Source: a bacterium (GTDB taxonomy: Bacteria > SAR324 > JACQKK01). From it: DNA of 64,000 nt. A model generated the notes under the pieces. It was not told the DNA's origin. It saw only the letters and a list, made by a program, of their open reading frames with translations, and did not search any database. Within the stretch, counting starts at the first letter, position 1; each line of letters opens with the position of its first letter. The translations under genes and the position numbers were made by a program. The stretch covers positions 151,046-215,045 of the forward strand of contig OZ251219.1 in assembly GCA_965240465.1 (NCBI GenBank). Reading direction: 5' to 3'. Below are positions 4,272-53,067 of the stretch, piece after piece.

Positions 4272-6122
4272 TTAGGTTATCTTGCTACAGAGTTTTTGCA
4301 GTTGCTGATGTCTGGTGTGTGAAATCTGGAAATCGGTTTTGATCTCAATCATTTCAATGCCCTTGTTCCGAGTCGTTTCAACGATGATGCGAGAAAGTTC
4401 CGCTAGGCTTGTTGGTTGATAATAGTCAATATCATGGGCTTGGGCTAGTTTTTGAAATTGAGTGTGGTGTGGGGCTAGAAATAATGATTTAAACTGGGGA
4501 TGGTGCTTAATAGGCAGAGTATAAAAAATACCACCACCATTGTTATTTATGAGAATAATTTTAAGGGGGATTTTTGTTTGTTGATTCATGCAGAGTACAT
4601 TACTGTCATGGAGAAGTGCTGTATCACCGATGAGTAAGAAGGAAGACTTAGCATTATGTTTTGCTGCTCCAAGAGCGGTGGAGATAGTGCCATCAATGCC
4701 ATTGGTGCCTCTATTGGATAGGTGTGTAATGGGAGGAGCATTTTGAGGCCAGTATTGTGAGAGGTATCTAAGGCAAAGACTGCTGGCAGTAAAAATAAGG
4801 GAGTGTTGAGGTATCAGGGACGCAAGCTGGATGATTAATTGACCTTCAAACCAGCTGTGTTGGGGAGGTTGGGGCAGATAAGAATTTTGCTGGAGATTTT
4901 GGTTGATGATTTGCTGAATATCCTGTTTAGCAGAAGAGAAAATAGAGAGCCACTGGGGATCTCTATGAGATTTATTGATGGAGTTAATGGACTGGAGGAG
5001 TTGTTTGATAGTAAGAGTTGGCTCCGCGTGCAGATGTTGAGAGTGAGGATGATGATGATGATCGTTCCAGCGACCTTGGGGATCTATTATTGTTTGAGGT
5101 GTATCTGGCTGTGACAGTAGGCTATCTAGTTCAGCGTCCACGGGCATAGCCCCAAAGCGAAGGATATATTGTGGGGGCATAGCCTGTTGTACAGCTTTGG
5201 TTTGAAGTGTAGCACTGGGGTGTGGAATAAGGTTGGGATGGGTACCATTTTGCCAAATACCGCTTGAAGGTTCTGCAAAAATTGGCCATCCCAGCTGGTA
5301 AGCCAGCGAGGTAATGCTCTGTGCAAATGATTTGAGGGGAAAGGTAGTATCCAGGGTGGAGATAGGAGAATGAGGACCACCAACTATTATGCCTCTGGGG
5401 ATATTGGATATAGTTTCCGCAAGGGATGAGAAAACTTTAAACGATAGTTTAGGGATGGCTGGATTAGCAGAAACTTGCAGTGGGACGGAATAATCTTGTT
5501 GTAACAGTTGAGCAGCTATTTTTATTACCGAGGACGGTAATTTTTCAGCAGTCGTTGATGGTTCAAGTGGTTTTGGGAAAGGGAAGTTGATGTGAACAGG
5601 CCCTTGCGGAATACAAAGAGCTTTTTTAAGAAGTTTGGGTGCAAGACTAAATAGAGCAAGCAATGCTGAGGCAGTCATGCGAGGCTCACCTGGGTTAACG
5701 TGCCAGTGGTCGTAAGAGGCAAACATGCCATCTTGATGGGTGGTTTGATTAGCTCCACAGTGATGCAGTTGTGGTGGTCTGTCGGCTGAAATTACAATGA
5801 GAGGAATACAAGAGTTATGAGCTTCAACGATCGCAGGTAAGAAATTGGCAGGTGCTGTTCCGGACGTACAGAGTACTGCTACTGGTTTGTGGCTACTTTT
5901 TGCTATTCCCATGGCAAAGAATGCCGCAGAGCGTTCATCAATTATAAGATGAGTCCTTAAGCTAGTGTGAGCCGCACATGCCAAGGATATTGGTGCTGAA
6001 CGAGAACCTGGACTAATACAAATATCGCGTATACCCGAAAGGCTTAGGGCATGAACAAATATAGATGCCCATAAAGTATTGGCGTTGGCTAAATAATCGT
6101 GGTCACGAAAGGCGGTGAACAT
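4272..6122 (-). CDS. menD: 2-succinyl-5-enolpyruvyl-6-hydroxy-3-cyclohexene-1-carboxylate (SEPHCHC) synthase
   Basis: 616-aa ORF. ThDP-enzyme motifs: ISPGSRSAP, CTSGTAPANFLPAIVEAH...PLIVISADRPP, GIDGTISTALGAA, GDTALLHDSN...NNNGGGIF. Adjacent to menF. Confidence 0.9.
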   Translation of the reverse strand: MFTAFRDHDYLANANTLWASIFVHALSLSGIRDICISPGSRSAPISLACAAHTSLRTHLIIDERSAAFFAMGIAKSSHKPVAVLCTSGTAPANFLPAIVEAHNSCIPLIVISADRPPQLHHCGANQTTHQDGMFASYDHWHVNPGEPRMTASALLALFSLAPKLLKKALCIPQGPVHINFPFPKPLEPSTTAEKLPSSVIKIAAQLLQQDYSVPLQVSANPAIPKLSFKVFSSLAETISNIPRGIIVGGPHSPISTLDTTFPLKSFAQSITSLAYQLGWPIFAEPSSGIWQNGTHPNLIPHPSATLQTKAVQQAMPPQYILRFGAMPVDAELDSLLSQPDTPQTIIDPQGRWNDHHHHPHSQHLHAEPTLTIKQLLQSINSINKSHRDPQWLSIFSSAKQDIQQIINQNLQQNSYLPQPPQHSWFEGQLIIQLASLIPQHSLIFTASSLCLRYLSQYWPQNAPPITHLSNRGTNGIDGTISTALGAAKHNAKSSFLLIGDTALLHDSNVLCMNQQTKIPLKIILINNNGGGIFYTLPIKHHPQFKSLFLAPHHTQFQKLAQAHDIDYYQPTSLAELSRIIVETTRNKGIEMIEIKTDFQISHTRHQQLQKLCSKIT

Positions 6123-6178
6123 GTAAAGAAGAGGTTTTTGGAGTGAAAATTTTTTGGATAAATTGTCAATAAATATGG

Positions 6179-7627
6179 TTATAGGGAAGGATTTATAGCT
6201 GATATCATGGGTTGGAGTTTCAATTGTAGCTCATGCCACTCATCCTGAGGTTTGGAGGCTTCCAAGATGCCTGCTCCTACAAATAAGTAGGCTTGATTAG
6301 GTCTCAGTAACCCGCAACGCAGGGCAACCGCAAACTCACCATGCCGAGGACCTTGTAGCCATCCAATCGGAGAAGCAAACCAACCCCGCTCAAATTGCTC
6401 TAATTCTGCAATGGCTTGTAATGCCTGTTCACGAGGATATCCTCCCACTGCAGGGGTGGGATGCAATTTGCCGAGTAAAGTCAATGGAGATATGTCACCA
6501 CGTGGAAAAAAAACAATCGGGGTGTGCAAATGCTGAACATTAGCAAGTTGCATCAAGCAAGGCTCGGTAGAAAAACTAACCTCACCATAAGAAGATAACA
6601 AACCGGTTATTTCATCCACTACCACACGGTGCTCTTCCCTATCTTTAGCACTGTGGAAAAGACGTTGGGCGTACTGATTGTCATCAGCAGGATCACTACC
6701 TCTGGAGGCTGTTCCTGCCAGAGCACTCAAGCATGCTTTGTTTCCCTCAAAAGAAATCAACCTCTCAGGTGAAGCCCCTACAAATATTCCATTCCCAGAC
6801 TCAGCCCCAGTCTTAGACTCGGGCACAATGCAAAAACAATAGCAGTCTGGGTACTGCTTTCGTAATCGGGCACTAACTTGATAGGCATCCGTGCACACGG
6901 AATAGTACATTACTTGTGTCAAGACTGCCTTATGTAAATCGCTTGATGCCATCTTATGCTGCAAGGCTTTTACCATCATATTCCAAGCATGCGATTGTTT
7001 CTCTTTACTCAATGCTTCCAGTTCACCAGTATTTTTCCACTCCACCTGAGACACTTCACTCTGGAACACAGAACTGAGCATTCTTAAACCCTCTTCCAGC
7101 CGGTTATGTACGACATTTGATTCATCCATGGTTTCTACCCAAGACTGCACCATGCCCCACAACTTGTTACCACGACGCACCAAAGCTACTTTTGGTAAAA
7201 TCATCCGAGCTACTCCAAACTCAGACCATAAATCATCTGTAACCTCAGAGAAAAAAGAAAATCCACCCACTAGTAACGGATACTCCACTGCCCCCTGAAA
7301 ACCAGAACCGCATACTGCTTCTTGCTGTAATCTCTCAACCTGAGTTGCCAATTTCTCAAAACGCTCATCCCCTTTAGAGCTCAACACATGGCTACTTCCG
7401 CCTGTAGCTAAGCCCTCGTTCACACTTGGGTGTTCCCAGTAAAAAGAATTTCCCTCTAAATCTTGCAAAATCCGAGCACAATTTAATATATCAACCCCTT
7501 GAAATTGCGATAGATCTATCATCTGTACTACAGCACAACCCCTTCCTAATCTAACTGCCTGTGCTAACCCTCGTTCACATAATCCGCCTAGATCAGGAAC
7601 ACGAATTTGTACCATATCACACCACAC
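6179..7627 (-). CDS. menF: isochorismate synthase (menaquinone-specific)
   Basis: 482-aa ORF with the chorismate-binding C-terminal motifs SPERL, GTASRG, LHPTPAVGGYP, ERGWFASPIGW and AGILEAS.P..EW.E. Immediately upstream of menD. The true start may be the ATG at 7615. Confidence 0.85.
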   Translation of the reverse strand: MWCDMVQIRVPDLGGLCERGLAQAVRLGRGCAVVQMIDLSQFQGVDILNCARILQDLEGNSFYWEHPSVNEGLATGGSSHVLSSKGDERFEKLATQVERLQQEAVCGSGFQGAVEYPLLVGGFSFFSEVTDDLWSEFGVARMILPKVALVRRGNKLWGMVQSWVETMDESNVVHNRLEEGLRMLSSVFQSEVSQVEWKNTGELEALSKEKQSHAWNMMVKALQHKMASSDLHKAVLTQVMYYSVCTDAYQVSARLRKQYPDCYCFCIVPESKTGAESGNGIFVGASPERLISFEGNKACLSALAGTASRGSDPADDNQYAQRLFHSAKDREEHRVVVDEITGLLSSYGEVSFSTEPCLMQLANVQHLHTPIVFFPRGDISPLTLLGKLHPTPAVGGYPREQALQAIAELEQFERGWFASPIGWLQGPRHGEFAVALRCGLLRPNQAYLFVGAGILEASKPQDEWHELQLKLQPMISAINPSL

Positions 7628-7917
7628 CTAGAGCTAAACTCTCTAACTAACCTACCCATTAACTTGTAATACATACTGCCTAATCACTATTATCATTAGT
7701 CAGTTAACCACGAATTTATTCATATCGTCTCATTAATTTTTAGCAAAACCCCGATTACAAAACCATCATGCCTCTATTAAATATGAGAATCTCATTCTGT
7801 TACAAACACCCCTCGCTGTAAAAGGCATGATAAACTACTTCTTGTTAGCATTCTAATAAGATTTGATAAAACCAACCCAGCACTACAATAACCACCACCA
7901 CCCAACCCCCGCCCGCT

Positions 7918-8721
7918 ATGAATACTGCTTATAAAGATATTTACTACCAAGTCCAAGCAGGAGTATCTACAGTGACCATCAATCGCCCAGAAGTGCTCAA
8001 TGCCTTCCGTCCTCAAACGGTGGATGAAATACTGGAAGCATTCCAACAAGCATGGGATGATGAATCAGTCGGAGTGGTAGTGCTGACAGGAGCTGGTGGT
8101 AATTTCTGCAGTGGTGGAGATCAAAAACTTCGCGGGGACAGCGGCTATTTAGATAAATCTCAGAACCGCAACCGACTCCAAGTTCGTCATCTTCATAGAA
8201 TGATAAGAGATATTCCCAAGCCTGTAATTGCGATGGTTGATGGCTGGTGCGTCGGGGGTGGTCATGTGTTGCATATTCTATGCGACTTAACTATTGCTTC
8301 TGAGCGTGCGAAGTTTGGTCAAACTGGTCCCAAAGTAGGAAGCTTTGATGCTGGATTTGGCACCATACAATTGGCACGCATTGTAGGAGAAAAAAAAGCC
8401 CGCGAAATATGGTTTCTCTGTGAATCCTACAACGCTGAAGAAGCACTCTTGATGGGGCTAGTCAATAAAGTTGTACCCCTTGAAGAATTGACTTCCACCA
8501 CCAAGCAATGGTGCGAAAAAATATTGTCTCGCAGTCCAACCGCATTAAGGTTTTTGAAAGCATCCTTCAATGCCGATACCGATCATGTCTATGGTCTGCA
8601 AAACATAGCCCACGGAGCGGTGCACTTATTTTACGGTAGCGAAGAAAGTAAAGAAGGGCGCCAAGCTTGGAAAGAAAAACGAACTCCTGATTTTTCATCA
8701 TTTAGAAGAATGCCTTGGTAA
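7918..8721 (+). CDS. menB: 1,4-dihydroxy-2-naphthoyl-CoA synthase
   Basis: 267-aa crotonase-fold ORF: [79 protein letters not shown]-terminal [11 protein letters not shown]. Confidence 0.95.
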
Positions 8722-9717: not shown

Positions 9718-12700
9718 TTATTGTTCTGCTTCTAATAACTGCTGGCGTTGTGCCTCTAGTTCAGCAGCGGCGGCTTCATCAGTGATGCGATAGGTGGTGT
9801 TTTTGAAATCACGGAAACCGGTTCCACAAGGAATAAGCCTTCCCATGATCACATTTTCCTTAAGACCACGTAGATAATCAACCTTGCCCTGGATGGCAGA
9901 TTCGGTAAGTACCTTGGTAGTCTCTTGGAAAGAGGCTGCAGAAATGAATGAATCGGTACTTAGAGCTGCCTTAGTTATGCCTTGTAGAACCACCTTACCT
10001 CTGGCGGGTTCTTTATTGGTAGCAATAGCATCTGAATTAGCACGTTCAAAATCCTTGCGAGACACCAGCTCATTGATTAGGAAGGTAGTGCTACCCGGAT
10101 CTATAACTCGAATTTGACGTAACATTTGACGGACAATCACCTCAATGTGTTTATCGTGAATGCCTACTCCTTGCAGGCGATATACCTCTTGTACTTCATC
10201 CACCATGTATTTTTGGAGCTCTTTAGTACCCAATACAGCAAGCATATCGTGAGGGTTAGCCAAACCATCTACAATGGAATCCCCAGCACGAACATAATCA
10301 CCCTCATGGACGATGATATGTTTTCCACTTGGAATCAAGTATTCCTTTGCATCTCCTTGCTCAGGGGTAACAATCACCTTATGTTTGCGCTTAACATCCT
10401 TTCCAAAGCTCACTTGGCCATCAATTTCAGATATTATGGAAGTTTCTTTGGGTATGCGTGCTTCAAAAAGTTCTGCCACCCTAGGGAGACCGCCAGTAAT
10501 ATCGCGATTCCTAAGGATTTCCCGTGGTAGTCGAGCAAGCACTGTGCCTGTTTCTACCTGTTGTCCTTCTTCCACCATTAATTCTGCTTTGGCAGGCAAG
10601 CTAACCCGAGCTGGTTGACTACCATCAAAAGATTTTACTACAGCACCGTTTTTGTCATAAATAGAGATAGTCGGGCGAAATCCAGCTGAAGGTTCCACAA
10701 TTACTCTACGAGACAGTCCAGTTTCTTTGTTCACCTGTTCTATCATAGTGTTGCCTTCAACAATATCAGAGAATCTAACTATTCCTGAAGCACCAGAAAG
10801 GATAGGTACAACAAAAGGGTCCCACTCTGCCAGTGCCTGACCACGTTTGATATCCGTTCCCGAAGACACCAACATAATTGCTCCTACTGGGAGAGCTCGT
10901 TGCTCTAGTTCTTGTCCTTCTTCATTAACCACTAAGGCTTCGGCTTTACGACTCATAACAACCCCCCTTCCATCGTTGTTTCTTACGACCCGCATCTGGC
11001 TGTAATCTAGCTTCCCAGAGAATTTGGCATCCCAACGACTGATCTCTGCGCGCTTACTAGCCGCACCACCCATGTGGAAAGTACGCATTGTTAACTGTGT
11101 CCCGGGTTCGCCAATACTTTGAGCCGCAATCACACCCACAGCTTCTCCATGAGCAATAATCCGCCCCCGAGACAAATCACGACCGTAGCATAACGCACAA
11201 ATTCCGTGTTCCTGACGGCATGTCAATACCGATCTAATCCACATTCTTTCAATACCAGCCTCTTCAATAGAATGAGCTATTGCCTCGTCAATTTGTTCAC
11301 CGGCTTTTACCATCAAAGAATTGTTAGTTGGGTCCGACACATCTTCCAAAGACACTCTACCTACCACCCTTTCGCCAAGAGTTTCTATGATCTCTCCTGC
11401 TTCAATAAGTGCAGTAATTTCAATGCCATCCATGCTACCGCAATCATTATTGGTTATGATGGCATCCTGTGCTACATCTACCAATCTACGGGTCAAATAA
11501 CCCGAATTTGCTGTCTTTAGAGCCGTATCGGCTAAGCCCTTACGTGCTCCGTGAGCGGAAATAAAGTACTGCAAAACGCTGAGGCCTTCACGAAAATTTG
11601 CAGTAATAGGAGTTTCTATGATCTCACCCGAGGGCTTGGCCATCAACCCCCGCATACCCGCCAACTGCTTCATTTGCTGTGGGCTACCCCTAGCACCAGA
11701 ATCTGACATCACAAAAATAGAATTGGTCGTTCCTTCACGCAGTTGTTGACTGCTACTTAAATTCTTCAGCATGGTGTCAGCAACTTGGTCTGTGAGGCGT
11801 GCCCAAACATCAATTACTTTATTGTAGCGTTCTCCTTCAGTGATCAAGCCATCCACATATTGTTGACGTACTTCTAGTACCTCATTTTCTGCCTGATTCA
11901 GTAATTTTGCCTTCTCTTTCGGAATTGCCATGTCCTCAATAGAAATTGAGAATCCTGCTTTAGTAGCATGATGAAAACCCAGAATCTTGATGGCATCCAA
12001 CATTCTCAAAGCCACTTTACTACCACCCACTATGTTGGCTTGATCAACCAGAGCAGCCAATTCACGCTTTTTCAACAATCTATTGACCATTACAAAAGGC
12101 ACTTGTGGTGGCACGTGGTTATACAAAAGTGCCCTTCCAACAGTGGTATTTTCCACATTTTCGTGTATCCTGATGCGAATTCGGTCATGAAGCTTGACAC
12201 AGTTGTGATCATAAGCCAGCTGTAGTTCTTCTAATGAGAAGAAGAATTTACCCTGACCTTCTTTTTTTTCTTTGCCACTGAATTCTTTGGTCATCCAATA
12301 GAGTCCCAGCACCATATCCTGGGTAGGTGCCATAATAGGTTTCCCATTGGCAGAAGATAGAATGTTGTTGCTGGACATCATCAGTACTCGTGCTTCTAGT
12401 TGGGCTTCAATCGACAGCGGTATGTGAACAGCCATTTGGTCGCCATCAAAATCGGCATTGAATGCAGTACAAACCAGAGGATGTAATTGAATGGCTTTTC
12501 CTTCCACCAATAGAGGTTCAAACGCCTGAATCCCCAAGCGATGTAGCGTAGGTGCACGATTGAGCAATATCGGATGTTCCTTTATCACTTCATCTAGTAC
12601 CTCCCACACTTCAAGCCTGTGTTCCTCCACCATTTTTTTAGCTACCTTAATGGTAGATACCCCATAATTGGCCATCAATTTATGAAAAATAAAAGGCTTG

Positions 12701-13845
12701 AACAATTCCATAGCCATCAATTTTGGCAAGCCGCACTGATGAAGTTTGAGTTCAGGGCCTACAACAATCACGGTGCGTCCAGAATAATCAACTCGTTTTC
12801 CCAACAAATTCTGCCTAAAACGTCCCTGCTTACCCTTCAAAATATCACTCAGAGATTTCAAGGCACGCCTGTTATTGCCCAGAATAGGGCGTCCTCGTCT
12901 ACCATTGTCCAATAATGCATCTACTGCCTCTTGTAGCATTCGCTTCTCGTTGCGTAGAATCAGATCCGGTGCTAGTAGGTGAAGCAACCTCCTAAGACGA
13001 TTGTTACGATGAATGACACGACGATATAAATCGTTCAAATCGCTGGTAGCAAAGCGTCCTCCATCTAAAGGCACCAATGGGCGAAGCTCTGGAGACAAAA
13101 CCGGTAGCACATCAATAATCATGGAAGCTGATTCATTACCTGATTTCCTCATTGCTTCTACTATCTTTAGAAGCTTTATCACCTTTTTACGCTTAGCTTC
13201 CGAGGTTGCCGACCGCATTTCTTCATGCATCTCTTGGCTGATGAGATCCAAATCCATGTCCGCTAAAATACCTTTGATTGTTTCTGCGCCCATGCCAATT
13301 TGCAAATCAGGATACTGATCTTGCAAATCTTCGGCTTGATCTTCTTCCACCAATTCGCGTTCCTTTAAGGGGGAGCTCCCAGGTTGAATAACCACATAGG
13401 CGTCATAGTACAACACTCGCTCTAATTCTCTCAGCGGCATATCCAGGAGATTAGCCATCCGACTAGGGATACCTTTCAAAAACCAGACATGAGAAACAGG
13501 ACAAGCCAACTGAATATGCCCCAATCTCTCCCTACGCACCCGAGATTGAATCACCTCCACCCCGCATTTTTCGCAAGTAATGCCACGATGCTTCATGCGT
13601 TTGTACTTTCCACACAAACACTCATAATCGTGATTTGGCCCAAATATTCTGGCACAGAATAGTCCATCCTTTTCTGGCTTAAAAGTTCGGTAATTTATGG
13701 TTTCAGAAGTTTTAACTTCGCCGTGAGACCACGACAAGATTTCCTCAGCAGAAGCCATCCGAATACGCACCTTAGAAAAGTTTATATTGTCGGACTGCGG
13801 CTGTCTTTGTTGTTTAGCCAGGAATGAGGTAGTAGCAATGTTCAT
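9718..13845 (-). CDS. rpoC: DNA-directed RNA polymerase subunit beta-prime
   Basis: 1375-aa ORF with the zinc motif CxCGK...C..CGVEV, the catalytic [12 protein letters not shown] motif and trigger-loop/bridge-helix regions. Directly downstream of rpoB. Confidence 0.99.
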
Positions 13846-13922
13846 GTATGCCTAAGGAAAAAATAAAAATAGCAATCAAAGAATTAAGTATAAAGGATGA
13901 TAAACAAATTTCAGCCAAGCCA

Positions 13923-16900
13923 TTAAAGTAAATCTACGCTCAAGCAAAGACTTTTTAATTCATTGGTAAGCACCTTGAAAGATTCAGGAACACTAGTTTC
14001 CATTGCATAATTTCCTTTCACAATAGATTCATAGATGCTGTTTCTACCTATGATATCATCAGACTTCACCGCCAACATTTCCTGCAGAGTGAATGCCGAG
14101 CCATAGGCTTGCAGAGCCCAAACTTCCATTTCACCGAAGCGCTGGCCACCAAATTGAGCCTTGCCTCCTAGTGGTTGCTGAGTAACTAGGGAATAAGGGC
14201 CAATGGAACGTGCATGAATTTTTTCGTCCACCAAATGATGAAGCTTCATCATATAGATTTTTCCCACGGTCACAAATTGATCAAATGGTTCTCCTGTAAA
14301 ACCGTCATAGAGGGTAATTTGTCCAGAACTAGGTAGCTGGGCTAATTTTAGCAAGCGGAGGATATCGCTTTCTTTGGCACCATCAAAAACAGGGGTAGCC
14401 AAGTGAATGCCGTCCTGAAAGTCTGATACCAATTCCAGCAAGGCCTCATCATTCAGAGATTGAAAGTACTCCTGTACTCCCTCGTTTTTATAAACTTCAT
14501 TTAGGTACTCACGTAATTTAGCTATCGGATGATGCTGTTTCACCATATCATTCAACTGTTTTCCCAGTTCGTGAGCAGCCCAACCTAAGTGAGTTTCAAG
14601 CACTTGCCCCACATTCATGCGGCTAGGAACACCCAGCGGATTAAGCACTATATCCACAGCCTGACCACCAGCCATATAGGGCATGTTTTCAATGGCTTCA
14701 ATTCGTGAGACCACCCCTTTATTGCCATGGCGGCCAGCCATTTTATCGCCCTCAGATAGCTTACGCTTTACCGCCAGACTGACCTTCACCATCCGAATAA
14801 CCCCGGGGGGAAGATCATCACCTTCTTTCAATCTATCGCAACGGTTATGGTACACTTTCTCCAGTAATTTCACCTGCGTTAAAGCAGCAGAAATAATTCT
14901 GCGTAGTTTGCGATCAGTATTCGCATCCGATACATGCACTTCATCCCATGCTTGCAGAGGGATACTATCTGCTACCTCAGCCGTTATTTTCTGTCCCTTT
15001 TTGCACAAAACCTCCCGACTGCCAGTACGAACCACATCAAATGCCAATTTTTTATTCCCCACAAGCTTTAACGCCAATTGCAACAAATTCTCTCGCACAA
15101 TCCGTACTTCATCCCGATAGTCTTTTGAAAATTGCTCCAGTGTTTCTTCCGCTATTTGCTTACTGCGATCATCTTTTTCTAGCCCTTTGCGGTTGAAAAC
15201 AACCACATTAATCACTACCCCAGAAATTCCTTGAGCAACCCGCAACGAAGTATCCCGAACATCACCTGCCTTTCCACCAAAGATGGCTCGCAACAGTTTC
15301 TCCTCTGGATTAGGCTGAGTCTCTCCCTTAGGGGTTACCTTTGCTACCAGGATGTCGCCTTGTTTCACGTACGTGCCGATCCGAACAATCCCACTGGCAT
15401 CCAAATTACGTAAAACCTCTTCTCCCACATTTGGAATGTCTCTGGTAATGTCTTCCTGACCCAGCTTGGTCTCACGTGCAACAATCTCTAACTCTTCAAT
15501 ATGGATGGAGGTAAACAGGTCGTCGTGCAACACCCGCTCTGAAACCAATATAGAATCCTCAAAATTGTAGCCATTCCAGGGCATAAATGCCACCAGCAGG
15601 TTCTGCCCCAAAGCTAACTCACCTTTATCACAAGAGCTGCCATCAGCAATGATATCACCTACTTCCACTCTTTGGCCAACTTTCACGATCGGACGCTGGT
15701 TGATGCAAATATTCTGATTAGAACTCCTAAATTTTGAAAGATGGTAAATATCAATATTGGGAGTGTTATCATAGTCCACACCGATGTTAACATCAGATTG
15801 AACTATAACGCGTGCGGAGTCCAAGCGATTTACTACTCCTGCACGACTAGCTACCAAGCAAGCCCCTGAATCTGCTACGGTTTTTCTTTCCATGCCAGTG
15901 CCCACCAACGGGGCTTTTGGATCAATCAGAGGTACCGCTTGTCGTTGCATATTGGAACCCATCAGAGCTCGATTAGCATCATCATGCTCCAGAAAAGGAA
16001 TTAGAGATGCTGCGGTGGACACCAATTGATGCGGAGCAACATCCATATAATCAATTTCTTGGGCTTCAATCATTTCAAAATCGCCTTTGTGGCGTGCCGA
16101 TATTAATGGGTTCGCAAATTTTCTGTTCTTATCTAAGACAGCATTAGCTTGGGCGATTTTGAATTGGTCTTCTTCCACCGCAGATAGCAAGGCCACATCA
16201 GATAGTACCTTGGCTTTTTCTACCCTATGATAAGGAGTTTCAATAAATCCAAATTCATTTACAGATGCATAAATAGCTAAAGAAGCAATCAAGCCAATGT
16301 TAGGTCCCTCAGGCGTTTCTACTGGACAGATACGCCCATAGTGAGAAGAATGCACATCACGGACATCAAACCCAGCCCACTCACGGGTAAGACCGCCTGG
16401 ACCCAGAGCACTGAGACGCCTCTTGTGGGTTATTTCCGCCAAGGGATTGGTCTGATCCATAAATTGCGATAACTGACTACTACCAAAGAATTCGTTAACG
16501 GCCGCAGAAACTGGTTTAACATTAACGATGTCATGTAGCATCATTGATTCTGATTCCTGCAAGCTCATACGCTCTTTTATGGTGCGTTCCATGCGTACCA
16601 GCCCCACTCGGAATTGGTTTTCCAGCAATTCCCCCACCGCACGAACTCGCCTATTTCCCAGGTGGTCAATATCATCTACTGTTCCATTCCCTTCTCTCAA
16701 GTGTAGTAGATAACCTACAGTTTTTAAGATGTCTTCTTCTGTAAGTACAGTATTGTCCAGGCTCTCTTCTATACCTAGTTTTTTATTAAGTTTTAATCTT
16801 CCTACGCGAGACAAGCTGTAGCGTTCTGGATTAAAGAACAAGTTATTTAACAAAGAGCGAGCTGTTTCAAGGGTCGGAGGATCCCCTGGTTTCATACGCC

Positions 16901-18182
16901 TATAGAGTTCAATTTTTGCTTCATCGGGAGAACTTAAGCCATCTGATGCCAATGTTTCTCTGAAGGAATCTCCGATAGTGTTTTCTGCGGTGCACAGGAA
17001 GGATACCTGCTTGATACCCTCTTTGAGGATATTTTCCAAGTGTTCTTCAGTCAGTTGGCAATTAGCGGATATAATTACTTCGCCATTACCAGCTAGAATT
17101 TCCTGATCGGTATAGCGTCCAACCACATTTTCCGCAGTGGTGGGAATTTGCTTTATCCCAGCTTGCTCGAGCTTTCTCAGTAGCACATTAGTAATACGAC
17201 GACCCTTAGGAGCTAGCAATTTTTTAGACTGAGGATCTTTAATATCTAAGAGAATCCTTTGTTGAAGTAGAGTACTGGCATTAAACTCTTGGAAGAACTT
17301 GCGTTTTTCAGGTGGTTTTCCTACGGCTTGGGAAGTATCTATTTTTTCAGTGGAATAAAATCGGTTGAGCAATTCTTGTTCGCCGTATCCCAAGGCACGT
17401 AGCAAAATAGTCACCGGAAATTTTCTTTTACGGTCTACGCGAGCGTAGAAAATATCTTTGGAATCAAATTCAAAATCTACCCAAGAACCCCGCTGAGGAA
17501 TAATTCTAGCGGTGTAGAATTTTTTTCCTGTAGCACTGGTTTTAGTACTGTCATGAGTAAAAAACACCCCAGGACTTTTGTGCATTTGGCTAACAATAAC
17601 CCGTTCTGTTCCATTGATGATAAAACCACCTTGGTCTGTCATAACGGGTAAGTCGTCAAGATAAACATCTTGTTCCTTGACCTCACGTATTTTCTTATTT
17701 TCTTTGGAAGATTCTTTGTCCCAAAGAACCATACGTAGTGCAATTCGTAACGGGCGAGAATAGGTAACCCCACGAATACGACATTCAGTTTCTGTGTAAT
17801 GTGGTTCCCCTAGGGTATAGTGAACATAATCTAAGGTAGAAGTGTTGCTAAAATCGGAGATGGGGAAGATAGAGCGAAGTATTGCTTCCAACCCCACATT
17901 TTCACGCTTATCTGGAGGAACATCCAGTTGCAGAAATTTACGAAAAGAACACACTTGAACATCCAGCAGATGAGGCATGGGAGGAGCCTCAATACTGCCG
18001 AATGAAACGCGTGCTCGGTTTTGGAAGTGACGGAATTTACCTGCCAAGCCATTACCATTATTGGTATCAATAGCAGTTACACTAGTCTTTGTTTTGGAAG
18101 CAACAGGCGATTTTTCTATATCTTTTAGGGTCGTTTTTAGGGGAGATTTAGACGTTTTTAATTCAGGGGTTTTGGCAGCCAT
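13923..18182 (-). CDS. rpoB: DNA-directed RNA polymerase subunit beta
   Basis: 1419-aa ORF. Rif-cluster region [32 protein letters not shown], plus [18 protein letters not shown] and [13 protein letters not shown]. It carries about 46 extra N-terminal residues relative to the E. coli-type start; an alternative TTG at 18047 is possible. Confidence 0.99.
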
Positions 18183-19443: not shown

Positions 19444-19609
19444 ACCATCATCCACTAGCAAAAAAATGACTGACAAGAACCACCTTTATAAACTTAGATA
19501 TATTCATCTTTAGGGCTATAGGAGAACTTTATACTGATATTTCATTGCGGACAACAATTAAAAGTGTTATCGTCTATGGGGGTTGTTTCTAGCTGAATGT
19601 CACCAGATC

Positions 19610-20224
19610 ATGAAACTTTCTATTAAAGAATTCTCAAAAAAGAGAAGAGATTCTCAACCTGCCTATGTGTTTGATTTACGCTCAGCCGAAGAGTACCAAA
19701 TTGATCACCTAGCGGGAGCTCACAATTTGCCCTTTCAATATTTAGAGTCCAATCTTCACCGCCTACCTTTTAGCGGTGATATCCTTTTCTATGACGGCGG
19801 CGAAGGAATATCTAAACAAGCGGCAGACATCCTTTGTGAGAACGGCTTCAGCGACTATTTCTTCGTGGAAGAAGGGCATGAGAATTTAAAAAAATTTCTC
19901 AAAGACTCCTCTTTTGATATTAAGCTATCCTGTACCAAGGACGACCCCGTCTCGGTACAAAAAGAAGTCCTCCAAAACCTTCTTAATTTAGAGATAAATC
20001 CTGCAGTTTCTTCACATGGTGGTTATTTTTCCTTGATAGACATCAAAGATAACAATGTTTACGTGGAACTCAGCGGCGGATGCCAAGGATGTGGAATGGT
20101 AGATGTTACACTGCGTCAAGGAGTAGAAAAGCGCATGCGTGAGGTCTTCCCTGATATGACTGCCCTGATAGACATTACGGACCACGCTGAAGGAGAAAAT
20201 CCCTATTATCAGCCTTCCAAATAA
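19610..20224 (+). CDS. fusion protein: rhodanese-homology domain (active-site Cys replaced by Asp) + NfuA-type C-terminal Fe-S scaffold domain
   Basis: The ORF track starts at TTG 19583; ATG 19610 (MKLSIKEF) is more likely. The N-terminal half has the rhodanese fold pattern (YVFDLRSAEEY...GAHNLP...ILFYDGGEGISKQAADIL..GF) with D where the catalytic C normally sits. The C-terminal half, INPAVSSHGGYFSLIDI...SGGCQGCGMVDVTLRQGVEKRMREVFP...ITDH..GENPYY, closely follows the E. coli NfuA C-domain (INPQLAGHGGRVSL...[20 protein letters not shown]). Confidence 0.7.
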   Translation: MKLSIKEFSKKRRDSQPAYVFDLRSAEEYQIDHLAGAHNLPFQYLESNLHRLPFSGDILFYDGGEGISKQAADILCENGFSDYFFVEEGHENLKKFLKDSSFDIKLSCTKDDPVSVQKEVLQNLLNLEINPAVSSHGGYFSLIDIKDNNVYVELSGGCQGCGMVDVTLRQGVEKRMREVFPDMTALIDITDHAEGENPYYQPSK

Positions 20225-20289: not shown

Positions 20290-22782
20290 TTACTGGACTA
20301 TGTTTTTAACATATTCCAGCTTCAGAGTAGTAAACCGTACCGCGGTAGCAATATGTTGCTGATGACCCCTTAGCACGTTGCTGTACCCTATTCCCTTGAG
20401 TCCTTCTCTTTTAAGCTGTTTTACAAACAATACCCTCAAGCTTTTTCCTCCCTCAATGGCATATTCCAAGCGTAGCTCATTCAGCCCGGATATTGTTGGA
20501 CATTGGGCCCGAACATCAAGCCATTCGTTTTTTGCTAAGGGTCCCCATTTTTTTATGGGTACGCTATTGCATAACAACTGTATTTGCTGGCCATTGTGTA
20601 GATTTTCCAACCTCGCCCGCAATTGAACCTGCTTATTAGCCTGACCACTATCGGCAACGTGCCAATACAGGACAGTTGTTTTACCCAGGGAATATCGCTC
20701 ATTTCCTACACTAGCGATGGTACCCAACCTTTTGGAACGGTACTTGAGTCCCTTAGCACTAATTCCATAAGGTCGTTCAAAAGCTACAAAATCAGCCTGA
20801 CCCTCAAAAAAGACTACCGGAGGATTGTCAGCCAAGTTTTTTTTATGGCGACTACGCCAATCATCTGTTAGCGGAACAAATGCCAGCTTGGTGCCTTTTT
20901 CTTTATTGGCTAGTAAGCGAGCCGTTGGCCGACCAAAACGATGATAAAATTCCTTAGCACAGCCAGTAGCCATCAAATCCTCGTGTACCTGAATACCAGC
21001 AAAGTCATGCTGTGATAAATGTAGTTCCAAGAAACGATATTCATCTTCCTTGAGACAACGCCACTGACGACGAGGTTCTTTTATTCCCCCCTGCTGGCGT
21101 GCTTCTGGCCACAATAAATGCGGCCAGCCCTGTAAAATCAGTTTTTCCAATAGACTGCTCGGGGGCCAGATATCCCATCCTCCTGCCAGACCTTTTTTGT
21201 CATGATGCCTGCGTAAAAAGCCAATATCCTGAGCCCAGAAATCATAAGAACACATAGCACGAAATCCACGAATACGAAGACAAAATGGCCACTCAAAAAT
21301 AGCCGTACCCTCTGTATTCTTAATAACATTTGCATAAGATACAATATCTTGACGGTCTACTCTGGTAAAAGAATGGGCATCTGGAAGTTCTGAGGCAAAT
21401 GTATGAACCTCCGTTCCAGCTACCACCAACCAAATGGCAAAAACCCCCTTGTGGACATGTCGCCAATCGATTTCCAAGGTTGGCAATAGTAGTAGCAATG
21501 GATAGAGCAATGTGCCTCGCCCTCCTACTCTTGTAAAACTGTGCCAGGGAAACACCTCCAATAGCGGCAGTAAGCGCGGAATGTTGAATACTAACAGCAA
21601 AAAAAACACCCCCGAGGGCAACAGCCATACCCACGCAGGAGTAGACTCAGACGCATTGGCCGAAGTATCAAAGGAGCCAGAATCTGTAGAAGACGACCTA
21701 AACCAACACCCCCGAACTGCCCACCACCAACCCATTATCCCCAGAGATAACAACGCCCAACCAGCCATCCCACTATAAAAATGCTCTCTTATGTCAAACA
21801 GATCTAATGAAAAGCTAGCTTTCCAATATGGAAGAAACAACCGCAATGGACTGGAAAACCAAAACCTAAAATAATGTCCCGAATCCGTACTAACAGGAGT
21901 AATGGCACTAACAATCTGCAAAACCAGCGGCACGTACAACCACCCCACTACAAACATTGCCCCCAGCAAAGAACAGTGCCAAAAAGGCCTGCCACGTACC
22001 TCAGACCATCCATGGAAACTTGCACGCAAGGCCAGCTTCCAGATGCTACCAGTACCCAGCCATCGCCTGTGCCATACCCAGCCCACCCCAAATAACAATG
22101 TGATCACAAACGATGTTATATTCAATGCCCCTACATAGCCTAATCCATGCCCCAATCCTAGCAACAGAAACAATCCACGTAACATTACCAGCTTCAATCG
22201 CAACTTCCCTTCCCGTACCAATTGACGAAACAAGAGAAAGTCTACCAATACCCCCAACTGTAGCCAGTGAATATATGCAATATTAAAATGAACGCTCTGC
22301 TTGTAACCAACATAAAAATTTAACAAAACAGATAAAAATGCAAAAACTCCTGCACGATTATCACCATATACTCCCCGTAGTAGCCAAAAACTTCCTAAAC
22401 ACCCCACCAAAACGCTGATGGCTCCATAGTACAAGAACCACTCCCCCTCACCCAGCCACTTACCGCCCTGATACATCCATAATGCCTGCTCAAATGCCCA
22501 ATCTACCAACATAACCCCCATATCATAAGGATATGTGTGTTCATCACCAGCAGGCATCAATTGCGGAAATGGCCACCACTTGATCCAACGGGCAAAGTAA
22601 TCCCAAGTAAAATAAGATTGTTGTACATCTGTTGCCCCCTCCCACGCCCACCCTATTGGCAACCGATTGACAAAATCATGCCACCAAAAACAAAAACCCA
22701 ACAACACGAACACCCAAATCGCTGTTCGCACCCCTCCCAAACTCTTACCCCCCTTAATCTTCTCTACCAAACTGGTTAACAT
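20290..22782 (-). CDS. large Trp-rich polytopic membrane protein with about 350-aa C-terminal soluble region; function unknown (GT-C-like topology is only a guess)
   Basis: 830-aa uninterrupted ORF. The N-terminal ~480 aa hold many hydrophobic segments, with an acidic loop (PAGDEHTYPYD) after the first segment. The C-terminal part is hydrophilic and looks beta-rich. I recognise no family motif. Confidence 0.6.
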   Translation of the reverse strand: MLTSLVEKIKGGKSLGGVRTAIWVFVLLGFCFWWHDFVNRLPIGWAWEGATDVQQSYFTWDYFARWIKWWPFPQLMPAGDEHTYPYDMGVMLVDWAFEQALWMYQGGKWLGEGEWFLYYGAISVLVGCLGSFWLLRGVYGDNRAGVFAFLSVLLNFYVGYKQSVHFNIAYIHWLQLGVLVDFLLFRQLVREGKLRLKLVMLRGLFLLLGLGHGLGYVGALNITSFVITLLFGVGWVWHRRWLGTGSIWKLALRASFHGWSEVRGRPFWHCSLLGAMFVVGWLYVPLVLQIVSAITPVSTDSGHYFRFWFSSPLRLFLPYWKASFSLDLFDIREHFYSGMAGWALLSLGIMGWWWAVRGCWFRSSSTDSGSFDTSANASESTPAWVWLLPSGVFFLLLVFNIPRLLPLLEVFPWHSFTRVGGRGTLLYPLLLLLPTLEIDWRHVHKGVFAIWLVVAGTEVHTFASELPDAHSFTRVDRQDIVSYANVIKNTEGTAIFEWPFCLRIRGFRAMCSYDFWAQDIGFLRRHHDKKGLAGGWDIWPPSSLLEKLILQGWPHLLWPEARQQGGIKEPRRQWRCLKEDEYRFLELHLSQHDFAGIQVHEDLMATGCAKEFYHRFGRPTARLLANKEKGTKLAFVPLTDDWRSRHKKNLADNPPVVFFEGQADFVAFERPYGISAKGLKYRSKRLGTIASVGNERYSLGKTTVLYWHVADSGQANKQVQLRARLENLHNGQQIQLLCNSVPIKKWGPLAKNEWLDVRAQCPTISGLNELRLEYAIEGGKSLRVLFVKQLKREGLKGIGYSNVLRGHQQHIATAVRFTTLKLEYVKNIVQ

Positions 22783-37380: not shown

Positions 37381-38220
37381 TCAGCGCTTGCTTCTTGACG
37401 ATTTGCCATAGCGTTGATCCAGAAATTGTAGCCGACGAGTAGCATCATCGGTCCAAGCACCGCCTGAGGCAACCAACTCAGCGTAGAAACGGCGTGCCCG
37501 CAGAGGTTCTCCCACATCCTCCAAACAACTGGCCAGCAACCAGCGAACATCTGCCACTCTACGATATTGGGGCTGATTATCCAGCAGGGCGAACAGAGGC
37601 TCCATCGCCCCTTCACACTGGTGCAGTAAGAACAAAGCTTGACCCTGATAATGAAGCACCTGAGATAAACGCACGTCTTTGGGGTAACGCCTACGAAAAT
37701 CTGCTAAATCACGCACCCCTACATCCAGTTGCCCGTTGATAATCTGAGACAACCCACGGCGAAATAATTTATCTGCTACCGTCACATCAGGAACACCGGC
37801 CAACGGACTTCTCAACAGCTGCTCCATCACTGTGATCTGCAACCGCAATTTATCAACCTCATCACGCCAAACCACTTGGGATTTAGCATGTTCTTGTAAC
37901 TCATTCTTAAATTCTTGTTCCAACCTTAAAGCCTCTATCTCCATACGCTCCAAGGTTTCACGCAAAGCTTTATTTTCTGCGGTCACCTCCCTTAAAAGAT
38001 TTTCCAACAGCTGTAAGCGATTTTCTATAGCATTAAGCTTACGATTAGACTGGGCTTGAACAGGAACTGCTAATGATATCAGCCCCATTGATAACACCAA
38101 CATCCCCAGCAAGAACATTCTAAAGCAACCTTCAAAAGGCTTAACTTGCCGATACGGAGGCAAGTACCTCTGTAGAAAGGGAACGATATTTCTAATCAAT
38201 CTGCTATTACAATAGGACAT
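37381..38220 (-). CDS. cpoB: Tol-Pal system protein YbgF/CpoB
   Basis: 279 aa. Signal/anchor segment, then a long coiled coil (LNAIENRLQLLENLLREVTAENKALRETLERMEIEALRLEQE), then a TPR-like C-terminus (F..F...YP.....S.VLHYQGQALF). Located immediately after tolB. Confidence 0.7.
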   Translation of the reverse strand: MSYCNSRLIRNIVPFLQRYLPPYRQVKPFEGCFRMFLLGMLVLSMGLISLAVPVQAQSNRKLNAIENRLQLLENLLREVTAENKALRETLERMEIEALRLEQEFKNELQEHAKSQVVWRDEVDKLRLQITVMEQLLRSPLAGVPDVTVADKLFRRGLSQIINGQLDVGVRDLADFRRRYPKDVRLSQVLHYQGQALFLLHQCEGAMEPLFALLDNQPQYRRVADVRWLLASCLEDVGEPLRARRFYAELVASGGAWTDDATRRLQFLDQRYGKSSRSKR

Positions 38221-43201: not shown

Positions 43202-44383
43202 CTAATATCTTGGCAGTGAGGGGTCTATCTCCTTAGCCCAGCTGTCTATTCCCCCTTCTACACTGACAGCATTGAGGAAACCTTGTTCCTGCATTATACG
43301 CACCGCAGTTTCTGAGCGAATGCCATGATGACAATATACAAAAATCTTTTCCTCCTTAGGCAATAAATCCAAACCATTCGGCAAATCACCAACCGGAGCC
43401 AACCGTGCCCCCTTGATGCGTACCATGTCCCATTCATGAGGCTCTCTCACATCCACCAGAATGACATTTCCCTTGCCCATGGATTGCTGAAGTTCTCTCA
43501 CTGTTGCAGTTGGAACAGGAGTTTCCTCTGTTTTTTTCTCAGCAGTGTCCGCCTGACTGGCATTCACAAATGATTCATAATCCATAAAACCTCTCAGACT
43601 GGGGTTATCTCCGCAAAGCACACACTTCTTGTTTTTTGCCATTTGCAGGGTTCGGATGCTCATATCTAAGGCATCATACAGAATCAACCTATTTTTCATG
43701 ACCTTGCCAATACCCACGATAAACTTTATCGCCTCGGTGGACATCAGCAAACCCACCACGCCTGGGAGCACGCCTAAGACACCTGCTGTGTTTCAATTCG
43801 GTGCCAGGCTAGGCGGCGGCGGGACCGCGTACAAACAACGATAACAAGCCCCTCCCTCACGCGGAATAAACAAACTAACTTGTCCTTCAAATCTAAAAAT
43901 AGATCCTGATATCAATGGCAAACCCGCGAACCACGCCGCATCGTTCACTAAATATCTAGTTTCAAAATTGTCCGAACAATCCAGCACTAAATCCCAATCA
44001 GCAAAGATAGACTCCACATTCTCCACCGTTAAACGCTCCCGATACTCCTTCACCTCTACATAAGGATTCAGAGCCTTGATGCGACGCACCATTGATTCTG
44101 ACTTTGGCCGGCCAACACTGGCGGTGTCATGGGCAATCTGCCGATTGAGGTTGCTTTCTTCTACCAAGTCGTTATCCACCACTCCTATAGTACCCACTCC
44201 TGAAGCTGCCAAATAAATCCCCACTGGCGAGCCTAATCCACCTGCCCCAATGTACAACACCCGTGCCTGCTTCAAACGCAACTGCCCCGCTACTCCCACC
44301 TCCGGCAAAATTAAATGACGATTGTATCGCCGGCTCTCATCAGGCGACAACATTTCATCTGGTGTTCTATCCGACATCCACAC
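43202..44383 (-). CDS. MoeB/ThiF/MoeZ-type adenylyltransferase fused to a C-terminal rhodanese domain; a single in-frame TGA (43793-43795) at the conserved loop Cys (candidate selenocysteine, or a split/pseudogene)
   Basis: Track ORFs 43793..44383 and 43202..43771 are in the same frame, separated only by TGA plus 7 sense codons. Read-through gives RYNRHLILPEVG..., GAGGLGS, CYRCLY..PPPPSLAPN-[TGA]-NTAGVLGVLPGVVGLLMSTEAIK, CVLCG, then rhodanese (VDVREPHEW...YCHHGIRS). Total 393 residues, the normal MoeZ length. Confidence 0.7.
43745..43792 (-). other. candidate SECIS-like stem-loop immediately 3' of the in-frame UGA
   Basis: mRNA: UGAAACACAGCAGGUGUCUUAGGCGUGCUCCCAGGCGUGGUGGGUUUGCUG. CCCA (nt 30-33 after the U of UGA) pairs with UGGG (41-44) around a 7-nt loop GGCGUGG. 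CAGCA (8-12) pairs with UGCUG (47-51) as an outer helix. Both pairings were verified on the plus strand. No energy calculation was done. Confidence 0.3.
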
Positions 44384-52359: not shown

Positions 52360-53067
52360 TCAAATGGACATCGGCTGTGCTTCAAGTATTTGCATAGCCA
52401 GTTGCAACCAGTTGGGCGGTATATGTCCTTGGGAAAAAAAATCGCCAACGGAGTTATCAAAAGGTAAGAAACAAGCATTGATGTTGAGTTCATGCTTAGT
52501 AACATGTCTACAAAGGGACTGCTTGTTTTTGCTGAACTCCGCCGCATGAAAAAAATCTGGCGATTGAACCTGATTAAATACCACCTGTGCCAAAAAATCT
52601 CGCTCTGTTTCTACTTTGGATTGTCGCTTGATGAGAGCTGCCAACCAAGTTAGCGTCCACACATCGGGCAGAACAGGAAGGCATGGGATAAGCAACAAAT
52701 CCGCGGTGCGAATAATGCTCTCGGTAGAAGCAGAAAGACCGGGAGGACCATCTATGACTACCCAGTCTACATCAGTACGGGTACGCAACTCCAAATGCTT
52801 ATCTGGTAAAGGCAGGGTTTCCAACTGCATTTCTTTAGGTAGCCCATGCATAGCACACCAGTCACTGCTGGTAGCCTGAGGGTCAGCATCCACCAACAGT
52901 ACCCGTTGGTGAAGTCGTTGCAAGGCTAGGGATGTAATTAAAGACAGGGTACTCTTTCCCACCCCCCCCTTCTGGTGCAAAAAAGCCACCACCGCAACCC
53001 TTTTCTGGTGGAGCCAAACCGCATTTGGCAACCGAAAGGTATCTTTATGACGGAAAGAACCCGTCAT
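52360..53067 (-). CDS. ParA/MinD-superfamily P-loop ATPase (small, orphan ParA-like)
   Basis: 235 aa. Deviant Walker A VAFLHQKGGVGKSTLSL, then LLVDADPQATSSDW and VVIDGPPG (Walker B-like). It starts 2 nt after the htpX stop. No parB-like gene is adjacent. Confidence 0.75.
   Translation of the reverse strand: MTGSFRHKDTFRLPNAVWLHQKRVAVVAFLHQKGGVGKSTLSLITSLALQRLHQRVLLVDADPQATSSDWCAMHGLPKEMQLETLPLPDKHLELRTRTDVDWVVIDGPPGLSASTESIIRTADLLLIPCLPVLPDVWTLTWLAALIKRQSKVETERDFLAQVVFNQVQSPDFFHAAEFSKNKQSLCRHVTKHELNINACFLPFDNSVGDFFSQGHIPPNWLQLAMQILEAQPMSI

Follow-up and report, generated by a model that had tools for sequence, protein, structure and literature searches.

A MoeB/MoeZ-type enzyme with a predicted selenocysteine in its crossover loop: a divergent candidate member of a selenoprotein family proposed in 2005

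Background

Does a single in-frame TGA codon divide a gene into two, or is it read as selenocysteine (Sec) within one protein? The question is raised by a locus on contig OZ251219.1 (assembly GCA_965240465.1) of a bacterium of the SAR324 lineage. We analyzed 64,000 nucleotides of this contig (positions 151,046 to 215,045, here referred to as the window; all coordinates are counted from its first letter). On the minus strand of the window two neighbouring open reading frames (ORFs), 43793..44383 and 43202..43771, together resemble a MoeB/ThiF-type enzyme with a rhodanese domain. An original prediction, made from the letters of the window, had taken them for the two halves of one frame and had proposed that the TGA between them encodes Sec in place of the cysteine of the crossover loop. 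According to our analysis the gene probably encodes a Sec-containing, Uba4-like MoeB/MoeZ sulfur-carrier-protein activating enzyme, a reading to which we give a probability of about 85%. The proposed exchange of the loop cysteine for Sec is supported by the column on which the TGA lies, by a hairpin downstream of it, by the selection acting on the gene and by an earlier description of such proteins (PMC1088965).

A selenoprotein family of this kind has been on record for two decades. The "Molybdopterin biosynthesis MoeB protein" was among the 15 new selenoprotein families of Zhang, Fomenko & Gladyshev (2005, Genome Biol 6:R37), where it comprised 11 Sargasso Sea sequences (PMC1088965). The Global Ocean Sampling (GOS) survey of 2008 counted 19 sequences (PMC2398784). 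Reviews from 2022 and 2026 list it again, with MBT7809913.1 as representative and in both cases as a computational prediction only (PMC9312934, PMC13188914). Sec-containing MoeB-like sequences had been mentioned in the original prediction, and the supplement of the 2005 study does list them, with U at the column in question. Its entry AACY01471790, for example, reads ...GGPCYRCLYSEPPPAALVPSuAVAGVLGVLPGVVGLIQATEV... in protein and ...AGT TGA GCA GTT GCA GGA GTC CTA GGC GTG CTC CCG GGA... in DNA (PMC1088965).

Results and discussion

Reading frame and catalytic column

The minus-strand frame runs from an ATG at 44377, with an in-frame GTG upstream at 44383, to the TAG at 43202-43204, and the TGA at 43795..43793 is the sole stop inside it. 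The two ORFs are indeed halves of this frame, with only the TGA and 7 sense codons between them. All points that were checked in the original prediction's account of the sequence proved right. Read-through gives a product of 391 amino acids (aa) in which codon 195 is the predicted Sec, flanked as PPPPSLAPN-U-NTAGVLGVLPG. The predicted peptide across the site is ...SLAPN-U-NTAGVLGVLPGVVGLLMSTEAIK. The motifs GAGGLGS, CYRC, CVLC and YCHHGIRS, which had been described as intact, were all found in frame. They comprise the E1-type features, a GxGxxG nucleotide loop and two CxxC zinc pairs, as well as a rhodanese loop that fits CxxGxR(S/T) and whose cysteine is presumed to be the persulfide carrier.

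Among the NCBIfam models only that of the MoeB subfamily, PRK05690, was passed (289 bits, cut-off 266). MoeZ PRK07878 (425 bits, equivalog cut-off 647), MoeB PRK08762 (421, cut-off 449) and PRK07411 (399, cut-off 633) all stayed below threshold, so that by these models the protein may have a MoeZ, a MoeB or a ThiF role. The best match among solved structures was Uba4 (E = 2.7e-61), followed by E. coli MoeB and ThiF. When aligned to these structures with HMMER, the TGA falls on Cys187 of E. coli MoeB, in agreement with the equivalence proposed before, and the zinc ligands C172/C175 of MoeB pair with CYRC. The column also corresponds to Cys202 of Chaetomium Uba4, which is mutated to Lys in 6yuc and 6z6s, and presumably to Cys184 of ThiF. 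In 92 homologous loci the same column is TGC or TGT, which makes it a Sec/Cys pair. Cys202 of Uba4 is the catalytic cysteine of the crossover loop; it forms a thioester with Urm1, and the persulfide of the rhodanese domain then converts this thioester to an acyl-disulfide (PMC7527816).

Uba4/MOCS3 (6yub, 6yuc, 6z6s) resembles the window protein in the combination of an E1 adenylation domain with a C-terminal rhodanese domain and in the crossover-loop column. It differs in carrying Cys instead of Sec, in being eukaryotic, in serving Urm1 and in having a longer linker and insertions. The adenylation fold, the four zinc cysteines and the nucleotide loop are shared with E. coli MoeB (1jw9), ThiF (1zud, 1zfn) and MoeZ. 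A C-terminal rhodanese domain is also present in MoeZ of the M. tuberculosis type (PRK07878), whereas MoeB and ThiF are without one, and all three enzymes have Cys where the window protein has the predicted Sec.

Conservation of the TGA codon and selection on both halves

The closest relative found (here named L081) lies on the complete chromosome OZ252237.1 of 1,724,560 bp and shows 76% identity over the N-terminal half. Its frame, which ends with ...PSLPRY, is likewise interrupted by TGA at this codon and open everywhere else. Unrelated stops or frameshifts in close relatives had been named as evidence that would speak against a selenoprotein; L081 shares the TGA and has no other defect. Upstream of the TGA the proportions of non-synonymous (pN) and synonymous (pS) differences between the window and L081 are 0.146 and 0.84, downstream 0.235 and 0.745, and over 43613..43792 they are 0.225 and 0.79. 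Since pN is far below pS, with synonymous sites saturated, each half must have been preserved at the protein level from the split of the lineages onwards, and the window gene is under strong purifying selection on either side of the stop.

The shortened form is common in databases. In searches with the N-terminal half, fragments of 187-227 aa made up about 115 of the best 120 clusters, and each of the 13 whose sequence was retrieved terminates in ...PPPxxLxP(S/N). The identity of full-length Cys homologues to this query was 52-53% at most. A scan of metagenomes with a degenerate DNA pattern for P-x-TGA-x-x-A-G-V-L-G-V-L-P-G gave at least 120 loci with TGA at the column, each with a single frame through the conserved MoeB motifs on both sides. 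Additionally, genomes were scanned, one per species, with a TRR pattern in which TAA, TAG, TGA and TGG were all permitted. Here TGA was found in 119 of 119 matches and TAA, TAG or TGG in none. In total, at least 239 loci beyond L081, from many phyla, have a stop at this column, and its recurrence there is more than chance would give.

The hosts of the Sec-form belong to SAR324, Lambdaproteobacteria, Rokubacteria/Methylomirabilota, Poribacteria, Latescibacterota, Entotheonella/Tectomicrobia and Nitrospinota, and furthermore to Akkermansiaceae and other Verrucomicrobiota, Planctomycetota, Actinomycetota and Chloroflexi. Two domain orders occur. ThiF followed by a C-terminal rhodanese domain was found in the window, in SAR324 and in Akkermansiaceae; an N-terminal rhodanese domain followed by ThiF was found in Rokubacteria, Poribacteria, Actinomycetota and Latescibacterota.

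A hairpin downstream of the TGA

Comparative analysis, and only this, brought out a conserved hairpin with the consensus U-CCUGGG-[CGUGCU]-CCCAGG-A and a stem of 6-7 bp. It lies in the stretch encoding V-L-G-V-L, codons 5-9 after the UGA. In 111 unique Sec-forms these codons are almost fixed as GUC (107), CUG (107), GGC (104), GUG (105) and CUC (103), and the Pro codon after them is CCA or CCG in 103, while the four-fold sites flanking the five codons vary freely. The 52 Cys-forms with an identical GVLGVLPG peptide prefer GUG, CUC and CUG at Val5, Leu6 and Leu9 and have CCC for Pro; the codons of the Sec-forms at these three residues were seen in just 8-10 of them. The loop codons GGC and GUG are the commonest in Cys-forms too. 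All six inner pairs form in 99 of the 111 Sec-forms as against none of the 52 Cys-forms, with mean energies of -9.5 and -1.4 kcal/mol, respectively (Mann-Whitney P = 1e-24). The codon counts thus indicate that the hairpin is fixed through synonymous codon choice in Sec-forms.

The set was enlarged to 166 unique sequences, which separate into 142 of a type I and 24 of a type II. Pairing is complete in 135 of the type I sequences. Type II has CCC for Pro, a register shifted by one and a loop of 7 nt, and the third bases of Val5 and Gly11 covary (G-C in 12, C-G in 9, mismatch in 3). A swap from G-C to C-G was also found in the hairpin of one planctomycete. Since default codon usage alone produces register II in 17 of the 52 Cys-forms as well, these being high-GC sequences (set L083-L161), it is the covariation alone and not the presence of the hairpin that counts as support here. 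At this site the mere presence of a hairpin is a weak criterion for a Sec insertion sequence (SECIS).

The bacterial SECIS model describes a loop of 3-9 nt that has G in its first two positions, a stem of 4-16 bp, a distance of 16-37 nt from the UGA and an energy of -7.5 kcal/mol or lower (PMC13188914). The consensus element agrees with this in every respect: its 6-nt loop has G as second base, followed by U, and begins 20 nt beyond the UGA, the stem is 6-7 bp, and folding yields -11 to -12 kcal/mol. A TGA at this column in other genomes and a conserved hairpin after it, the two things that the original prediction had set out as worth looking for, were therefore both found.

Across phyla the nucleotides of the hairpin are nearly identical in both domain orders (loci L285-L402 and L162-L281). 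This suggests either one origin followed by lateral spread or very tight constraints imposed by SelB.

Placement of the window gene within the family

The MoeB selenoproteins of 2005 have the domain family, the Sec column and the downstream hairpin DNA in common with the window gene, and the Sargasso (SAR324-type) members also have its arrangement of ThiF with a C-terminal rhodanese domain. The window protein fits the family pattern, in which U stands after P-P-P-x-x-L-x-P-x and before x-x-A-G-V-L-G-V-L-P-G. It is divergent, however: over its N-terminal half the identity to SAR324-type members is 55-67%. The residues next to the predicted Sec differ (APN-U-NT in the window, VPS-U-AV/AE in the published sequences) and, unlike the published family hairpin, that of the window bears a mismatch. 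By these features of sequence the window gene is best described as a divergent new member of the selenoprotein family predicted since 2005.

Evidence against Sec decoding

Several results weigh against Sec decoding in the window, among them those on the hairpin itself, whose copy here is the weakest seen. The window codons GUC UUA GGC GUG CUC CCA GGC give U CUUAGG [CGUGCU] CCCAGG C. The Leu codon UUA occurs in only 1 of the 166 unique sequences. It turns one inner pair into U·G and another into an A×C mismatch, which leaves 5 of the 6. Folding of the 22-nt region gives -3.6 kcal/mol for the window, -7.2 for L081 and -11.2 for a SAR324 genome, and the value of the window is no better than that of shuffled sequences. 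Single-sequence folding of the 60 nt after the window UGA gave no signal above shuffles, and no Rfam model matched the window at the gathering threshold.

The same holds for the decoding machinery and for protein data. No selA, selB or selD (tblastn with E. coli queries) and no tRNA-Sec (ARAGORN) was found in the window and in about 2 Mb of retrieved flanking sequence, to which this search was confined. Two SAR324 single-cell genomes, both incomplete, are listed as "orphan SelD" without selenoprotein genes (PMC5029168, Table 1). Protein-level support was found for no member of the family. To our knowledge, none of them has been expressed, assayed or studied biochemically.

ARAGORN detected no tRNA at all in the 64-kb window. 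In the literature on the Sec machinery of SAR324, Poribacteria and Rokubacteria nothing was found beyond the "orphan SelD" listing (PMC5029168). An indirect argument for the machinery is the UGA-containing gene itself, which is intact and under selection in the lineages of both the window and L081.

In several SAR324 metagenome-assembled genomes and a single-cell genome (L087, L096, L333, L354, L356), however, moeZ contains the TGA and is followed up by a perfect copy of the hairpin. Incomplete genomes, or a split gene that was overlooked, may be the reason why SAR324 was listed as "orphan SelD".

Alternative explanations

Four other explanations were weighed, which together share the small remaining probability. 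The one that survives best accepts the selenoprotein family but regards the window copy as poorly decoded or being lost, either because its SECIS has drifted or because the Sec machinery has been lost or relaxed. The stem of the window points in this direction, with a Leu UUA unique among 166 sequences and an energy in the consensus register of -3.6 as against -11 kcal/mol for the consensus and -7.2 for L081. The genome is small, only about 1.6 Mb, and no Sec machinery was found in the window and the flanks searched, which is also in line with such a loss. Yet the frame and its motifs are intact under strong purifying selection, and neither the CGUGCU loop nor the pair of G-C base pairs that close it, features shared by nearly all members, has changed. 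Additionally, an alternative hairpin of 11 bp with a GGCG loop lies at an allowed distance from the UGA and fits the generic SECIS description of PMC13188914. It overlaps the family hairpin and might compensate for the A×C mismatch. This structure is not above shuffles (z = -0.88; 30 of 200 shuffles fold equally well) and is not conserved, being absent from L081 and other relatives. On balance we regard a decaying copy as quite unlikely.

Very unlikely, in our view, is a gene that is truly split, in which the UGA terminates, translation re-initiates at GTG 43771 or a later ATG, and the fragments assemble into an enzyme without the loop cysteine. E. coli MoeB tolerates the loss of Cys187, so that a Cys-less enzyme is conceivable, and the conservation of both halves would be expected of two working fragments. 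An AGGUG 9 nt upstream of GTG 43771 had been noted as a possible re-initiation signal. This claim did not hold up: the AGG is not conserved, codons 3-4 being mostly GCC GGC in the family, and the signal simply results from the way Ala-Gly-Val is encoded in the window, most members having GCC GGC GUC there. The conserved GUG (Val8) belongs to the hairpin loop and is not a start, and the start chosen by gene callers differs among genomes. Furthermore, the break would divide the adenylation domain between its zinc pairs, and simple termination leaves both the 119 of 119 TGA codons and the SECIS-fitting hairpin unexplained.

The conserved TGA, the conserved hairpin and the selection on both halves argue not only against a split gene but also against a pseudogene or sequencing error, i.e. 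a nonsense mutation or miscall at the Cys codon of a dead gene. The degenerate hairpin of the window, and the fact that standard gene callers split the gene in two, would fit such an explanation. The TGA is kept, however, in the 76%-identical L081 and in at least 239 other loci, it is TGA every time and never TAA or TAG, further stops or frameshifts are missing, all catalytic motifs are intact, and pN is well under pS on either side of the stop. We consider this explanation highly improbable and effectively refuted by the conservation across relatives.

Reading of the UGA by a tRNA other than that for Sec, whether by near-cognate read-through with Trp or Cys or under a reassigned code, is hardly credible; low-level UGA read-through is common in bacteria and nothing specific counts for it here, whereas the codon stands on the catalytic Cys column, the signature of a Sec/Cys pair, is followed by a conserved SECIS-type hairpin and is the one in-frame TGA in 64 kb.

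TGA is an ordinary terminator in the window. It ends grpE (46587), an ATP-binding cassette (ABC) gene (31760) and tolR (40429), as had been stated before, and also genes at 52360, 38266 and 37381, six in total. A systematic scan of the 64 kb gave no other credible in-frame TGA. Reassignment of the code was rejected on these grounds.

Proposed mechanism

If the UGA at 43795-43793 is read as Sec, decoding would require SelB and Sec-tRNA(Sec). These would be brought in by the short G+C-rich hairpin that starts about 14 nt after the UGA and has its loop about 20 nt after it, and one polypeptide of 391 residues would result instead of two fragments. By homology with Uba4, MoeB and ThiF, the adenylation domain is expected to adenylate the C-terminal Gly-Gly of a ubiquitin-fold sulfur carrier. 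Sec195, in the role of the catalytic Cys of E1 enzymes, would then attack the acyl-adenylate to form an acyl-selenoester. The rhodanese persulfide, on the Cys of YCHHGIRS, could resolve this acyl-selenoester and free the thiocarboxylated carrier, which in turn may feed thiazole, molybdopterin or other sulfur insertion. In comparison with Cys, Sec would be the faster nucleophile and leaving group and should better resist irreversible oxidation.

A candidate carrier is ThiS, and a carrier of the MoaD or CysO type encoded elsewhere is possible as well; no MoaD or CysO was found in the 64-kb window. ThiS, which ends in ...VMGG and so has the Gly-Gly end, is located with ThiG at 49.9-51.1 kb. This is 6 kb from the gene, in agreement with the context given by the original prediction. 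The two genes share no operon with the moeZ-type gene, which appears to form a transcription unit by itself, i.e. to be monocistronic.

It is also conceivable, though unlikely and speculative in either form, that the window gene departs from this scheme, by a Sec chemistry unlike that of the Cys enzymes or by a divergent SECIS recognition in the lineage. As to chemistry, an acyl-selenoester or Se-S relay might let the rhodanese/E1 pair operate under oxidising conditions, or an enzyme of the window type might mobilise selenium, giving a selenocarboxylate on the carrier; both ideas are speculative. Equally speculative is a decoding by a relaxed or divergent SelB-SECIS interaction, for which the genome size of 1.6-1.7 Mb and the departing hairpin could be cited. 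Were this the case, the gene might be among the very few reasons for which a reduced genome retains the Sec machinery.

Significance

For annotation, the Sec assignment would mean one protein in place of two fragments or a pseudogene. As the roughly 115 shortened clusters among the best 120 show, standard callers divide the gene both here and in hundreds of public genomes, and NCBIfam contains no "(seleno)protein" model for MoeB. The predicted protein would be an E1-like enzyme with Sec as its catalytic nucleophile. The family extends far beyond the 11-19 marine sequences of the initial reports. A comparison of Sec and Cys forms would bear on whether the crossover-loop nucleophile limits the rate of sulfur-carrier thiocarboxylation. 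The finding itself opens no new question, since family and Sec position were published in 2005.

Features and genomic neighbourhood

The features of the gene and of a second locus in the window are compiled in Table 1.

Table 1. Features of the moeZ-type gene and the YHS locus in the 64-kb window
Feature	Position	Strand	Basis or remarks
Predicted selenoprotein gene, MoeZ/MoeB-type adenylyltransferase/sulfurtransferase with C-terminal rhodanese	43202..44377	-	Frame, NCBIfam and Protein Data Bank (PDB) matches
In-frame UGA, predicted Sec codon, residue 195	43793..43795	-	Column of MoeB Cys187 / Uba4 Cys202; TGA in relatives
ThiF/E1 adenylation domain, N-terminal part (PF00899)	43796..44377	-	Contains GAGGLGS and CYRC
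Adenylation (MoeZ_MoeB) domain, rest after predicted Sec	43613..43792	-	GVLGVLPG and CVLC; aligns to MoeB residues 188-248
Rhodanese domain, C-terminal	43223..43549	-	Rhodanese models over residues 277-385; aligns with Uba4 rhodanese domain
Nucleotide loop GAGGLGS	44228-44248	-	Residues 44-50
First zinc pair CYRC	43835-43846	-	Residues 178-181
Second zinc pair CVLC	43613-43624	-	Residues 252-255
Rhodanese active-site loop YCHHGIRS	43313-43336	-	Residues 348-355
Family SECIS-type hairpin region	43760..43779	-	Loop 43767-43772, starts 20 nt after UGA
Alternative hairpin GGCG.UGCUCCCA[GGCG]UGG.GGGU.UUGC	43746..43774	-	11 bp, loop GGCG 30 nt after UGA, -11.3 kcal/mol
Tandem YHS paralogues, NCBIfam NF041384	22878-23363 and 23508-23996	-	Signal-peptide-like N-terminus, Cys in ...QYGGYCAFAV...

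The two YHS genes at 22.9-24.0 kb had been put forward as supporting context, their family being named a "(seleno)protein" family. They are present as described, but both are uninterrupted Cys-forms, and as a sign of Sec use they were rejected.

Around the moeZ-type gene no signs of mobile elements were found, and the context is an ordinary housekeeping one. The gene order moeZ-lplA-pal-tolQ-tolR is common to the window, to L081/L403 (OZ252237.1) and to locus L392, and HrcA of the closest relative (OZ252237.1) is 69% identical to that of the window.

Another gene of sulfur/Fe-S trafficking nearby encodes a rhodanese-NifU fusion (19583-20224, plus strand). Two minus-strand ORFs stand out for their lack of matches, one of 830 aa (20290-22782; no Pfam or NCBIfam match) and one of 279 aa (37381-38220; no Pfam match). 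A menaquinone-type set at 4272-8721, consisting of a MenD-like thiamine pyrophosphate (TPP) enzyme, a MenF-like chorismate-binding enzyme and a MenB-like enoyl-CoA hydratase, adjoins rpoB/rpoC (9718-18182).

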